Positions 41,902 to 51,082 are shown, counted from the first letter of the stretch. The stretch: 64,000 bases of DNA from Escherichia coli (GCF_003018255.1 NZ_CP027440.1), one strand, 5' to 3'. Numbers and translations: made by a program. The notes: a model not told the origin generated them from the sequence alone.

Positions 41902-43437
41902 ATGCAAACGAGTGATACCCGCGCGTTACCGCTACTTTGCGCCCGCTCGGTTTATAAACAGTATTCAGGGGTTAATGTCCTGAAAGGCATCGATTTTACG
42001 TTGCATCAGGGGGAGGTCCACGCCCTGCTCGGCGGCAATGGTGCCGGTAAATCGACGTTAATGAAGATTATTGCCGGTATTACCCCTGCTGATAGCGGTA
42101 CGCTGGAGATTGGGGGCAATAATTACACCAGATTAACGCCAGTTCATGCTCATCAGCTGGGCATTTATCTCGTTCCCCAGGAACCGCTGCTTTTTCCAAG
42201 CCTGTCGATAAAAGAAAACATCCTGTTTGGTCTGGCAAAAAAACAACTCTCCATACAGAAAATGAATAACTTGCTGGTGGCGCTGGGCTGCCAGTTTGAT
42301 CTGCATAGTCTGGCAGGATCGCTGGATGTCGCCGATCGCCAAATGGTGGAAATCCTCCGCGGCCTGATGCGCGACTCGCGGATTCTGATCCTCGATGAAC
42401 CTACAGCCTCGCTTACCCCTGCGGAAACCGAACGTTTGTTTCGTCGCTTGCAAGAGCTGCTTGCTACTGGCGTGGGTATTGTTTTTATCTCGCATAAGCT
42501 GCCGGAAATTCGCCAGATTGCCGATCGAATTAGCGTGATGCGCGACGGAACCATCGCCTTAAGCGGCAAAACCAGCGAACTGTCTACCGACGACATTATT
42601 CAGGCCATCACGCCAGCGCTACGGGAAAAATCGCTCTCTGCCAGCCAAAAATTATGGCTGGAATTACCTGGCAACCGCCCACAACATGCCGCGGGAACGC
42701 CGGTGCTGACACTGGAAAATCTGACCGGCGAAGGTTTCAGGAATGTCAGCCTGACGCTCAATGCCGGAGAAATTCTGGGCTTGGCTGGGCTGGTGGGAGC
42801 CGGACGCACAGAACTGGCCGAGACGCTCTATGGTCTGCGTACTTTGCGTGGCGGACGCATTATGCTGAATGGTAAAGAGATCAATAGATTATCCACCGGA
42901 GATCGTTTACTGCGCGGTCTGGTTTATCTGCCGGAAGATCGCCAGTCATCCGGACTTAATCTCGATGCTTCACTGGCGTGGAACGTCTGCGCCCTTACTC
43001 ATAACCTTCGTGGATTCTGGGCGAAAACCGCGAAAGATAATGCCACCCTGGAACGATATCGCCGGGCGCTGAATATTAAATTTAACCAACCGGAACAAGC
43101 TGCGCGGACCTTATCCGGCGGCAACCAGCAAAAAATCCTGATTGCCAAATGTCTGGAAGCTTCGCCGCAAGTTTTGATTGTCGATGAGCCGACGCGCGGC
43201 GTGGATGTCTCTGCGCGTAATGATATCTACCAACTGTTGCGCAGCATCGCCGCACAAAATGTGGCTGTGCTGCTTATCTCCTCTGATCTGGAAGAGATCG
43301 AACTGATGGCAGATCGCGTGTATGTGATGCATCAGGGCGAAATTGCCCACTCTGCACTGACCGGACGCGATATTAATGTCGAGACCATTATGCGCGTTGC
43401 CTTCGGAGATAGTCAGCGTCAGGAGGCGTCATGCTGA
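41902..43437 (+). CDS. lsrA: AI-2 ABC transporter ATP-binding protein LsrA (511 aa)
   Basis: Two Walker A motifs ([17 protein letters not shown]); recognised. Confidence 0.94.
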
Positions 43438-46511: not shown

Positions 46512-47387
46512 ATGGCAGATTTAGATGATATTAAAGATGGTAAAGATTTTCGTACCGATCAACCGCAACAAAATATCCCTTTTACCCTGAAAGGTTGCGG
46601 TGCACTGGATTGGGGAATGCAGTCACGCTTATCGCGGATATTTAATCCGAAAACGGGTAAAACCGTGATGCTGGCCTTTGATCATGGTTATTTTCAGGGG
46701 CCGACTACCGGACTTGAACGCATTGATATAAATATCGCCCCGCTGTTTGAACATGCCGATGTATTAATGTGTACGCGCGGCATTTTGCGCAGCGTAGTCC
46801 CCCCTGCGACCAATAAGCCGGTGGTACTGCGGGCGTCAGGTGCGAACTCTATTCTGGCGGAATTAAGTAATGAAGCCGTGGCGTTATCGATGGATGATGC
46901 CGTGCGCCTGAACAGTTGCGCGGTGGCGGCGCAGGTTTATATCGGCAGCGAATATGAACATCAGTCGATCAAAAATATTATTCAGCTGGTCGATGCCGGA
47001 ATGAAAGCGGGAATACCGACCATGGCCGTGACTGGTGTGGGCAAAGATATGGTGCGCGATCAGCGTTATTTCTCGCTCGCGACTCGAATCGCCGCTGAAA
47101 TGGGGGCGCAGATTATCAAAACTTATTATGTCGATAAAGGTTTTGAACGGATTGTTGCCGGATGTCCGGTACCCATTGTTATTGCTGGCGGTAAAAAGTT
47201 ACCGGAGCGCGAGGCGCTTGAAATGTGCTGGCAGGCTATCGATCAGGGCGCTTCTGGTGTGGATATGGGGCGTAATATTTTCCAGTCTGACCATCCGGTG
47301 GCGATGATGAAAGCCGTACAGGCGGTGGTACACCATAACGAAACGGCTGATCGGGCATATGAACTCTATCTGAGTGAAAAACAGTAA
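46512..47387 (+). CDS. lsrF: LsrF, aldolase-family 3-hydroxy-2,4-pentanedione-5-phosphate thiolase (291 aa)
   Basis: 291-aa ORF; recognised. Confidence 0.93.
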
Positions 47388-47410
47388 CTGCGGATTTAAG
47401 GAGAAGAATT

Positions 47411-47701
47411 ATGCACGTCACACTGGTTGAAATTAACGTTCATGAAGATAAGGTTGACGAGTTTATCGAAGTTTTTCGCCAGAACCACCTGGGCTCTGTA
47501 CAGGAAGAAGGCAATTTGCGCTTCGATGTCTTACAGGACCCGGAAGTGAATTCGCGCTTTTATATCTACGAAGCCTATAAAGATGAAGACGCAGTGGCAT
47601 TCCATAAAACCACGCCCCACTACAAAACCTGTGTCGCGAAACTGGAATCTTTAATGACCGGGCCGCGTAAAAAACGTCTGTTCAATGGGTTGATGCCGTG
47701 A
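47411..47701 (+). CDS. lsrG: LsrG, phospho-AI-2 isomerase (96 aa)
   Basis: 96-aa [43 protein letters not shown]... Confidence 0.93.
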
Positions 47702-47757
47702 GGCGAATTTATCAGTTTTATCTACAATTGGGGTAACGCGCTGACGGGAGTAAATAA

Positions 47758-48516
47758 ATGTCTGACTGGAACCCCTCTTTATATCTGCACTTTGCCGCTG
47801 AACGATCGCGTCCGGCGGTGGAGCTGCTTGCCAGAGTGCCGCTGGAGAATATCAAATACGTTGCCGATCTTGGCTGTGGCCCAGGTAACAGCACCACCCT
47901 GCTGCATCAACGTTGGCCTGCGGCCAGGATAACAGGCATCGACTCGTCTCCGGCGATGATTGCTGAAGCGCGCAGTACTTTGCCAGACTGCCAGTTCGTG
48001 GAAGCAGACATCCGCAACTGGCAACCGGAACAGGCACTCGATCTGATTTTTGCTAATGCCTCACTGCAATGGCTGCCCGACCACTACGAATTGTTCCCTC
48101 ATCTGGTTTCTTTACTTAATTCGCATGGTGTGTTGGCAGTACAGATGCCAGATAACTGGCTAGAGCCAACCCATGTGCTCATGCGCGAAGTCGCCTGGGA
48201 ACAAAATTATCCGGATCGCGGGCGTGAGCCGCTGGCTGGCGTTCATGCTTACTACGATATTCTGAGTGAAGCCGGATGTGAGGTCGATATCTGGCGAACC
48301 ACTTACTATCACCAGATGCCGTCGCACCAGTCGATTATCGATTGGGTGACCGCCACTGGATTACGTCCGTGGTTACAGGATCTGACCGAGAGCGAACAGC
48401 AGCATTTTCTTACGCGCTACCATCAGATGCTGGAAGAGCAATATCCCCTCCAGGAGAACGGACAGATATTGCTGGCATTTCCGCGTCTGTTTATTGTTGC
48501 CCGCCGTACGGAGTAA
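47758..48516 (+). CDS. tam: Trans-aconitate 2-methyltransferase Tam (252 aa)
   Basis: SAM-binding motif [10 protein letters not shown]; recognised. Confidence 0.93.
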
Positions 48517-48519
48517 TTA

Positions 48520-49434
48520 TCACGTCAGCTGGTAATGGCGATCGGGAAGAATTTTCGCTGGAATTTCTGCTTCATCGTTCATCTGTAACAGGTCAATTTC
48601 AATAGCGTTGCAGATGGCATCCAGCGGTAAGTCATTGTTTTCAGTACCGAAGGGATCTTCCAGTTCTTCCGCCAGACAATCCAGCGAAATAAAAGTGTAG
48701 GAAATCAGCACAGAGATAAAAGGCGTCATGTAATGCAGGTCCACGACCAGCGCAAACGGCAGCATGATACAAAACAGATACACGGTGCGATGCAAAATCA
48801 GGGTGTAGGCAAAGGGAATTGGCGTATAGGCAATGCGCTCGCATCCTGCCAGGACCACTGAAATATCATTAAGCCGATCGTTGAGGCTAATAAACAGGAT
48901 ATCTGAAAGTTGTCCATTGCGTCGCTGAACCGCCAACCACTCCCCCATTATTAACAAGATGCGGTTAGCTGGAGAGTTAGAAGCCAGTACACGCTGAAGA
49001 TCTTCAGTCTTGAGATAATGAGCCAGCACTTCCGCCTGTGGCTGTTTGCGTAATGTCATGCGTAAACAGTGGGCGAAGGCGATTTGCAGCCGGGCAAACT
49101 CCCTTACACTTGCCGAATCCGGCAATGTCGTTTTTACCTCGCGCAGTAACGACCGCGAGGCAATCATCAACTGCCCCCAAAGTTTTCGCGCTTCAACGTA
49201 ACGAGCGTAACCGGCATTATTACGAAAACCAAGAAAAATGGCGATGGCGACACCGAGAATGCTGAACGGTGCGAGGGTGAATTTAATGCCCAAATGCGTG
49301 TACCAGGGCAGCATGAAAATAACAGCGATAGAAAAGAGAAAATTGAGTAGTAAGCGCGAGGATATCTTGGATAATACTGAACCGTGCCAGACAAAAATAC
49401 GGCGCAGCCAGTGTTGTTGTGGACGAACAATCAT
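48520..49434 (-). CDS. yneE: Bestrophin-family membrane protein YneE (304 aa), start ATG at 49434
   Basis: ORF 48520..49485 trimmed to MIVRPQQHWLRRIF; convergent with tam with only 3 bp between the stops. Confidence 0.88.
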   Translation of the reverse strand: MIVRPQQHWLRRIFVWHGSVLSKISSRLLLNFLFSIAVIFMLPWYTHLGIKFTLAPFSILGVAIAIFLGFRNNAGYARYVEARKLWGQLMIASRSLLREVKTTLPDSASVREFARLQIAFAHCLRMTLRKQPQAEVLAHYLKTEDLQRVLASNSPANRILLIMGEWLAVQRRNGQLSDILFISLNDRLNDISVVLAGCERIAYTPIPFAYTLILHRTVYLFCIMLPFALVVDLHYMTPFISVLISYTFISLDCLAEELEDPFGTENNDLPLDAICNAIEIDLLQMNDEAEIPAKILPDRHYQLT

Positions 49435-49589
49435 GGTTATCTTCAGGCGTGGAAAAGTCGCCCTATTAAACGTGATTACGATCACATTCTCAAGACACTA
49501 CTTACAAATTACCTACAAGCTTACAACATTAACAGGTGCTGCATGTGGCACCTGTTAATGATAAAGGCGCATAGGATGTTGTAACTAAT

Positions 49590-49624
49590 ATAGTGAAATA
49601 AGAAACCCGGTCGAAACCGGGTTC
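49590..49624 (-). terminator. Rho-independent terminator downstream of uxaB
   Basis: Reverse strand: hairpin aacccggtttcgaccgggtt followed by a T-rich run. Confidence 0.6.
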
Positions 49625-49630
49625 AGAGTA

Positions 49631-51082
49631 TTAGCACAACGGACGTACAGCTTCGCGCATTCCTTTTTTGAGAATCGCATCCAGGTCATTAGCCACCTGC
49701 TCGACCAGACCAGGCACTTGCGTCAGGTCCTGCTCCCAGTGGTCTTTTTCTGCCAACACAATCGCTACCAGTTCCTGGGTACCGATAACACGGTCACGAT
49801 GCTGGCTCCAGAGTTGCTGATAACGTTCCAGCCAGTGTGCATCGTCCTGTACCGGATATGTTTCTCCATTACGCTCACCGCGATAAAACGCAATCAATGC
49901 CGCTAATGCGAAAGTCAGGCGCGCCGGAAGTGTGCCGTTTGCCTTCTGCCCTGCCAGCAGCTGCGGCAGGATACGGGTGCGGAACTTGGTCATACCGTTA
50001 AGCGCGATAGACAGCAGCTGATGCTTGATGTACGGATTACGGAAACGTCCGGTGACTGCACTGGCGAAAGATTCCAGTTCATCACGAGGCAAATCCAGTA
50101 CCGGAATAATCTCTTCGTAGATGGCTTTTTCAACGAATGCGCAAATTTCAGCATCGTTCATCGCTTCACCTACGGTATCCAGTCCTGCCTGGAACGCCAC
50201 CGGCACCAGCGCGGTGTGCGCACCGTTGAGGATTGCCACTTTGCGCTCTTTATACGGTTTAATATCGTCAACAATCAGCACGTTGAGCGGATATTTGTCC
50301 AGACGCAGTTCAGTCGCTAAGGATTTCGGCCCCTGAATCACAAACAGGTAAAAGTGTTCAGCGGTGTCGAGGAAACCATCGTGATAACCCAGTTCTTCTT
50401 CCAGTTTAGCCACTTCATCGCGCGGATAACCGGTAACGATACGGTCCACCAGCGTAGAACAGAAGCTGTTAGCCTGATCCAGCCATTGAATAAATGCTTC
50501 TGGCAGTGCCCACTCTTGCGCATAGCGCAGCACCAGTTCACGCAACGCGTCGCCATTGTAGTCGATCAACTCACACGGGATGATGATCCAACCTTTATCC
50601 AGCGCACCGTTGAAATGGCTAAAACGTTCGAACAGCAGACGGGTCAGTTTTGCCGGATAACTTACCGCCGGCGCGTCATCGAATTTATCGCCCGCATGGT
50701 AGCTGATACCCGCTTCGGTGGTGTTAGAGAAAACAAAGCGCATTTCCGGCTTGTGCGCCAGTTTCAGGAATTCATCGTATTCACTGTAGACGCTGATTTC
50801 ACGATTAACCGAGCGAATCAGACGCGCATCGCTGACCGCTTCACCCTTCTCATTCAGGCCACGGATAATGGTGGTGTACAGACCATCCTGTGTGCTCAGT
50901 GACGGTGGGAATGAAGTTTCAATCGGACGAACAACGACCACGCCAGAATTCAGATCGGTGTGCTCATTCAGGAGATCAATTTGCCAGTCAACAAAGGCGC
51001 GCAGGAAGTTACCTTCACCAAACTGAATGATACGTTCTGGATACTGTGCACCGGGAAAATCGCGACGATTTAGTGTTTTCAC
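49631..51082 (-). CDS. uxaB: Altronate oxidoreductase UxaB (483 aa)
   Basis: 483-aa mannitol-dehydrogenase-family ORF; recognised. Confidence 0.94.

Follow-up and report, generated by a model that had tools for sequence, protein, structure and literature searches.

tam and yneE are tail-to-tail neighbours on opposite strands of the Escherichia coli chromosome, within the 64,000-nucleotide stretch of DNA that was analysed here as a whole (the window). Window positions 47400-49700 are E. coli chromosome: 5418 of the 5426 complete E. coli genomes match them, with a top identity of 99.9%. In a near-identical genome the genes run in the order lsrF, lsrG, tam (plus strand), yneE (minus strand) and uxaB (minus strand). 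The product of tam is trans-aconitate 2-methyltransferase (252 aa), and that of yneE is a bestrophin-family inner-membrane protein with 99.7% amino-acid identity to K-12 YneE. The two coding sequences and the junction between them were read as follows:

47758..48516, plus strand: tam coding sequence (ORF list and RefSeq annotation of a 99.9%-identical E. coli genome)
48514..48516, plus strand: tam stop codon, TAA (direct reading)
48517..48519, no strand: spacer of 3 nt, tta (direct reading)
48520..48522, minus strand: yneE stop codon, TGA, which reads TCA on the plus strand (direct reading)
48520..49434, minus strand: yneE coding sequence, 304 aa, with its ATG at 49434 (ORF list and RefSeq annotation)

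The junction sequence is cgtacggagTAAttaTCAcgtcagc, and the window reads ggagTAAttaTCAcgtc across the tam and yneE stops. A sequence-only reading of this DNA had counted 3 nt between the convergent stop codons, a count that direct reading, the ORF list and the RefSeq annotation all confirmed. K-12 MG1655 likewise has a 3-bp gap between tam (1607346-1608104) and yneE (1608108-1609022), with the spacer ATA rather than TTA. This geometry is that of a convergent excludon. The window's Tam is 94.8% identical to K-12 Tam, compared to 99.7% for YneE, and a match of at least 99% to 47400-49700 was found in only 77 of about 5400 E. coli records; together these observations indicate that the junction may lie close to the point where a divergent lsr-tam allele gives way to a conserved yneE side.

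Spacing of this kind is not unusual for E. coli. In the annotation of three 50-kb E. coli stretches (150 kb), 21 convergent pairs had gaps of -38, -35, -4, -4, -4, 3, 24, 30, 31, 35, 39, 39, 43, 44, 56, 69, 75, 114, 114, 195 and 220 bp, and 6 of the 21 overlapped or lay no more than 5 bp apart (zapC/ycbX, -4; yccX/tusE, -4; yqfG/yqfH, -4; sxy/yccS, -38; ydeM and a small ORF, -35; tam/yneE, 3). Genome-wide, 3' ends were reported to overlap in 276 of 370 convergent operons (75%), by a mean of 286 nt (Conway et al. 2014, PMC4161252). Further tight junctions occur in the same neighbourhood of E. coli strain 104 (locus L039), namely eamA/marB at 30 bp (3865-3896), marC/ydeA at 24 bp (5861-5886) and ydeM with a small ORF overlapping by 35 bp (43282-43316); marB-eamA and yneP-ydeM also appear in the published excludome list (PMC12288877).

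The sequence-only reading had also seen no terminator hairpin between tam and yneE, and this was borne out by a consensus scan, by folding and by hairpin percentiles. The scan of 47300-49700 found no canonical terminator at or near the junction and no plus-strand terminator-like site between lsrG and the tam stop; its four weak terminator-like sites, which include 48457..48444 on the minus strand and 49110..49125 on the plus strand, are no excess over the 2.3 expected in shuffles. No stem-loop followed by a U-tract, the signature of an intrinsic (Rho-independent) terminator, was found past either stop, the two hairpins discussed below (I1 and I2) lacking U-tracts. Folds of 201 nt across the junction showed no unusual structure compared to shuffles (z = -1.21 on the plus strand and -0.04 on the minus strand). 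The best 45-nt hairpin within 150 nt past the tam stop reached -12.7 kcal/mol and that within 150 nt past the yneE stop -16.0 kcal/mol, at the 58th and 25th percentile, respectively, of random 150-nt segments of the window, and five other tight convergent pairs each carry a hairpin of -18 to -28 kcal/mol in the same zone on at least one side. Because the hairpins past both stops are unremarkable, the statement that there is no terminator is true even within the partner's coding sequence. Among Rfam families, only a chance-level match to RAGATH-25 (E = 0.77) was found in 47000-50000.

Polymerase leaving either gene therefore transcribes the coding sequence of its partner, and the earlier claim that the tam and yneE transcripts overlap as antisense RNA is supported by published K-12 data. 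ExcludonFinder lists tam-yneE among 165 convergent excludons found in at least 50% of 58 RNA-seq data sets (Sanmartin et al., NAR 2025, PMC12288877), with the proviso that a 3-bp gap almost automatically satisfies its criterion, which asks for coverage past the coding sequence at more than 50% of the gene's mean. Huang et al. 2020 (PMC7373196, Table S3) report two p19-captured, perfectly paired RNase III duplexes of about 21 nt with 2-nt overhangs (UUGUUGCCCGGCGUAUGGAGU / UCCAUACGCCGGGCAACAAUA and UUGCCCGGCGUAUGGAGUAAA / UACUCCAUACGCCGGGCAACA), which match the last ~25 nt of K-12 tam in the alignment of the window with K-12. Their equivalent in the window is:

48492..48517, no strand: counterpart of the K-12 p19 dsRNA region with at least 1 RPM on both strands (coordinates transferred from K-12)

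The presence of these duplexes at the tam 3' end indicates in vivo pairing of tam mRNA with a minus-strand RNA that continues for 28 nt or more past the yneE stop. Reads from dsRNA also cover both gene bodies, at 38-256 RPM for tam and 41-437 RPM for yneE; in that study a dsRNA level of at least 100 RPM marks the top 13.5% of genes in the stationary-phase set (PMC7373196). Published K-12 data thus show, for this pair, both the transcript overlap and the RNase III cleavage of a convergent excludon. The overlap is already known, since the pair is catalogued and the phenomenon is decades old (dnaQ-rnh, ilvA-ilvY).

Total RNA from the same study (Table S1c, PMC7373196) gives 71.7 sense and 3.4 antisense RPM for tam, and 11.3 and 19.4 RPM in the yneE row. 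yneE and uxaB (b1520, b1521) are labelled '+' in Table S1c and '-' in Table S1b (PMC7373196), a conflict indicating that the sense and antisense columns for these two genes are probably swapped and making density ratios uncertain; with the columns swapped, plus-strand RNA over uxaB (15.7 RPM) would exceed its sense RNA (2.3 RPM). Depending on the strand label, the antisense-to-sense ratio for yneE is 0.6 or 1.7, either of which is far above typical. With the Table S1c label taken to be wrong, the antisense density over yneE amounts to about 13% of the sense density of tam, and that over tam to about 21% of the sense density of yneE. These ratios would fit full-level read-through of about 100-200 nt, suggesting limited penetration of each gene by its neighbour's transcript.

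We consider it likely that tam-yneE is an ordinary compact convergent excludon, in which the genes share no intergenic terminator, their overlapping 3' ends are cut by RNase III, termination is diffuse and probably Rho-dependent, and the overlap is a tolerated by-product of compaction. The 3' UTR of each mRNA is antisense to the 3' end of its partner, and when both genes are expressed the complementary 3' ends pair and undergo RNase III cleavage, overlap and cleavage both being shown by the published K-12 data. Because ribosomes leave at the stop codon and read-through RNA is untranslated, diffuse Rho-dependent termination about 100-400 nt inside the partner would be the most likely outcome; polymerase collisions, alone or together with Rho, may also end read-through within a few hundred nt. 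Exonucleases would then trim the RNAs as far as local stem-loops, which would fix the mature 3' ends; for yneE this stem-loop may be I1. The C/G ratio stays near 1 over the first 200 nt past the stop on the minus strand and the first 360 nt on the plus strand, and the first 80-nt windows with a C/G ratio of at least 1.5 lie at +221..+300 on the minus strand (1.65) and +361..+440 on the plus strand (1.57). Dar and Sorek 2018 (PMC6061677) found the ends of Rho-dependent mRNAs immediately past stem-loops without U-tracts, with rut sites following closely.

The curated Term-seq table of Adams et al. 2021 holds no 3' end labelled tam or yneE except one upstream of yneE, supplementary file 2 of that study lists no bicyclomycin-sensitive (Rho) region in either gene, the nearest being internal to uxaB, and the SMRT-Cappable-seq supplements have no entry for tam or yneE 3' ends. 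These absences weigh against a defined 3' end and against Rho dependence, although low expression of tam and yneE may explain why they are missing from the Term-seq and Rho tables. As to the overlap itself, the most likely interpretation is that it is a tolerated by-product of genome compaction and not a dedicated regulatory device.

Perfect inverted repeats of at least 9 bp with loops of 3-25 nt occur at 0.33 per kb in the window, and a search for inverted repeats found a hairpin inside each coding sequence near the junction:

48437..48473, minus strand: hairpin I1 inside tam, 9-bp stem AGCAATATC / GATATTGCT (arms 48437-45 / 48465-73) with a 19-nt loop
48580..48616, plus strand: hairpin I2 inside yneE, 10-bp stem (arms 48580-89 / 48607-16) with a 17-nt loop

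On the minus strand I1 falls 47-85 nt past the yneE stop, within tam codons 227-239, and no U-tract comes after it. I2 lies at the yneE 3' end, 64-100 nt downstream of the tam stop; its stem has one G.U pair on the plus strand, which is A.C on the minus strand. The plus-strand form, perfect in Escherichia, reaches -12.5 kcal/mol, versus -7.9 kcal/mol for the minus-strand form. As a conserved structure I2 was rejected, given that 160-244 of 500 shuffles reach the observed covariation values, and we do not rely on it beyond its being a weak candidate.

The sequence-only reading overlooked hairpins within the partner's coding sequence as possible definers of 3' ends, and I1 is a candidate for such an element. 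Under this alternative, which we regard as possible but a minority view, I1 would act as a protective or pause hairpin on minus-strand RNA and set the 3' end of whichever gene abuts tam, I2 would perhaps do likewise for tam, and the overlap would be built in and bounded at about 190 bp. Comparison of 35 distinct tam sequences found standard pairs on the minus strand in 96.5% of cells, including 24 cells with G.U pairs that are A.C mismatches on the plus strand, and the observed pairing, number of compensated cells or covariation score was reached in 0 of 500 shuffles. Between the window (AGCAATATC / GATATTGCT) and K-12 (AGCAGTATC / GATACTGCT) the stem has undergone a compensatory, doubly synonymous A-T/G-C exchange; the rare Ile codon ATA is kept in the stem, and the region has the lowest synonymous diversity in tam (0.36 versus a mean of 0.50). 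As judged from 50-nt MFE values, the I1 segment has the most minus-strand structure of 40 segments tiled along tam in lineages where a convergent gene abuts it (mean -19.1 kcal/mol), and in 26 of 27 sequences from these lineages the minus strand is stabler than the plus strand. In the C. freundii-complex clade, in which tam is followed by a co-directional ORF of about 130 aa, the value falls to -7.6 kcal/mol, a far larger drop than in any other segment. Its shape also matches the U-less protective hairpins of Rho-dependent mRNAs (PMC6061677). Against these points, I1 in E. coli is unremarkable at -15 to -16 kcal/mol (25th-36th percentile of background), has no downstream U-tract, and coincides with no Term-seq 3' end reported at the site (Adams et al. 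2021). Moreover, the residues encoded by its arms (EEQY / QILL) are conserved, minus-strand wobble would be favoured a priori by 5 of the 7 possible synonymous transitions, and the difference from the C. freundii complex comes down essentially to a single phylogenetic event. The extension to I2 as a tam 3'-end element is weakened by covariation that does not exceed shuffles and by stability at the 58th percentile of background. The conservation of I1, which extends across genera to all lineages where tam has an abutting convergent gene, hints at an element more specific than passive read-through implies.

Two further explanations seem to us less probable. In one, which we consider unlikely, the pair is a functional excludon, a selected device in which induction of lsr-tam (by AI-2 and cAMP-CRP) represses yneE, and vice versa, through polymerase collision and RNase III. 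tam is the last gene of the lsrACDBFG-tam transcription unit (PMC8085971), and with no plus-strand terminator before its stop, induced lsr transcription would run antisense into yneE. This explanation draws on the membership of tam-yneE in the core excludome (PMC12288877), on dsRNA that is made and cut (PMC7373196), on the 3-bp gap found throughout Escherichia, and on a concept established for other pairs (PMC12288877), with a collision model available (bioRxiv 2022.10.23.513370). However, no expression anticorrelation or phenotype is reported for tam-yneE, conservation of the spacer over this divergence is expected without selection, the two genes lie 44-977 bp apart in Citrobacter, yneE is largely deleted in one Escherichia lineage, and the junction serves as a chromosomal site for reporter insertions, which are tolerated (bioRxiv 2020.07.07.191791). 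The partner of tam also differs between genera, so no logic specific to tam-yneE is conserved. No evidence was found in support of the earlier suggestion that the overlap could couple expression of tam and yneE. In the other, which we judge very improbable, the antisense RNAs start at independent promoters inside tam and yneE, and the mRNAs stop near their stop codons. Antisense RNA over yneE could stem from internal promoters instead of tam read-through, given that antisense transcription is known to start pervasively in E. coli and that no reported 3' end at the junction ties the antisense reads to either source. Yet no mechanism would end transcription so close (3 bp) to a stop codon, the site has no hairpin, a promoter scan found no sigma-70-like site on the minus strand in 48520-49216 or on the plus strand in 47300-49700, and the dsRNA duplexes sit right at the junction.

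Conservation of the gap and the identity of the partners of tam were assessed in a Tam protein scan with one genome per species (36 loci). The 3-bp tam-yneE gap is exact in all five Escherichia species representatives from the scan, among them E. albertii (Tam identity 88%); lineages that keep it include E. whittamii and two further Escherichia clades. In other Escherichia the spacer is ttg, tta or aag, and the yneE stop is TAA in several. We rejected this conservation as a sign of function, because at this level of divergence no indels would be expected in so small a target (3 bp). Outside Escherichia, the gap between the two genes is 44 bp in C. sedlakii, 199 bp in Pluralibacter and 505-977 bp in the C. 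freundii complex. Other convergent genes abut tam in several lineages, including a 396-aa CcdA/DsbD-like ORF at -4 to +6 bp in Enterobacter and Lelliottia, a porin-like ORF at 8 bp in E. soli and a 160-187-aa ORF at 2 bp in C. amalonaticus. Unrelated convergent genes at -4 to +8 bp were seen in loci L009, L010, L012, L020, L026, L029, L033 and L037 (at about 3256-3268). Synteny breaks at the tam 3' end, where tight tail-to-tail junctions have formed repeatedly. A co-directional ORF of some 130 aa, Cys-rich at its N-terminus, separates tam from yneE in C. portucalensis (L008), where it shares 4 bp with the end of yneE. In Escherichia sp. MOD1-EC7003 (L007:3263-3470), an internal deletion of about 743 bp (equivalent to 48642-49384 in the window) has left a yneE remnant consisting of the last 122 nt, still 3 bp from tam, and the first 50 nt.

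Were I1 functional, it would define and protect the 3' end of any convergent mRNA entering tam, whether from yneE in Escherichia, the CcdA/DsbD-like gene in Enterobacter and Lelliottia or the ORFs in C. amalonaticus, and would shield lsr-tam from deeper antisense transcription; we hold this broader role only tentatively, as somewhat doubtful. If true, this role would explain why tight junctions (-4 to +8 bp) between tam and unrelated genes recur in the absence of any intergenic terminator, and I1 would amount to a terminator-like element owned by the 'receiving' gene. A functional I1 would also mean that coding sequences can hold the 3'-end signal of a neighbour's mRNA, permitting complete loss of the spacer. 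I1 is the only new element of this analysis, and we treat it as a lead.

The ordinary excludon that we favour for tam-yneE shares its tail-to-tail overlap and RNase III-sensitive dsRNA with convergent excludons and overlapping convergent operons described previously (PMC4161252, PMC12288877), and the pair appears in the MG1655 excludome table. In that list, 146 of 165 pairs have a TransTermHP-predicted terminator in the partner's transcript (PMC12288877), whereas tam-yneE has no canonical terminator on either side. The pairs dnaQ-rnhA and ilvA-ilvY (refs 19 and 20 in PMC4161252) have the same convergent overlap with termination inside the neighbour, but were characterised by transcript mapping, while tam-yneE is known from genome-wide data only. 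Overlapping bidirectional terminators (Ju et al. 2019, according to bioRxiv 2022.10.23.513370; for example ynaJ-uspE) are likewise convergent and have a two-strand hairpin in the overlap, a position held here by I1, which, as in those cases, does not resemble an intrinsic terminator (bioRxiv 2022.10.23.513370). Bidirectional terminators are intergenic, however, and produce sharp 3' ends in highly expressed pairs, in contrast to the hairpin within a coding sequence, low expression and lack of reported sharp ends at tam-yneE. I1 is also similar to the pause hairpins of the collision model (bioRxiv 2022.10.23.513370) and to protective 3' stem-loops (PMC6061677), being free of a U-tract, shortly past a stop codon and followed downstream by the first C-rich, G-poor stretch. 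It differs from protective stem-loops (PMC6061677) in that no 3' end past the yneE stop and no Rho-sensitive region in yneE are reported (Adams et al. 2021), and in its modest stability in E. coli. The tam-yneE overlap alone matters little, as 3' overlap is the norm for convergent E. coli operons and the pair is catalogued. Nonetheless, as a clean natural case with no intergenic terminator, beside the well-studied inducible lsr operon, the junction is a convenient test bed for any regulatory cost or benefit of overlap.

The region upstream of yneE holds several features of its own. An exact replication-terminus core (AGGATGTTGTAACTAA), of which none is expected by chance, lies at 49573-49588 on the plus strand between uxaB and yneE; we take this site to be TerC. 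It overlaps two minus-strand sigma-70-like promoter matches (49614..49587 and 49585..49558) that could drive yneE. The yneE 5' leader (49435-49600, minus strand) has a very stable fold (-55 kcal/mol, z = -5.68) and includes a 13-bp perfect inverted repeat (49527-39 / 49548-60), with a hairpin and UUUU just before the ATG; it has no Rfam match in the 47000-50000 search and no ncRNA in the K-12 annotation. A K-12 'orphan' Term-seq 3' end at 1609037 on the minus strand (score 47630; Adams et al. 2021) falls 15 nt upstream of the yneE ATG, directly after the U-run. This 3' end suggests that the leader yields an abundant short RNA or acts as an attenuator controlling yneE.
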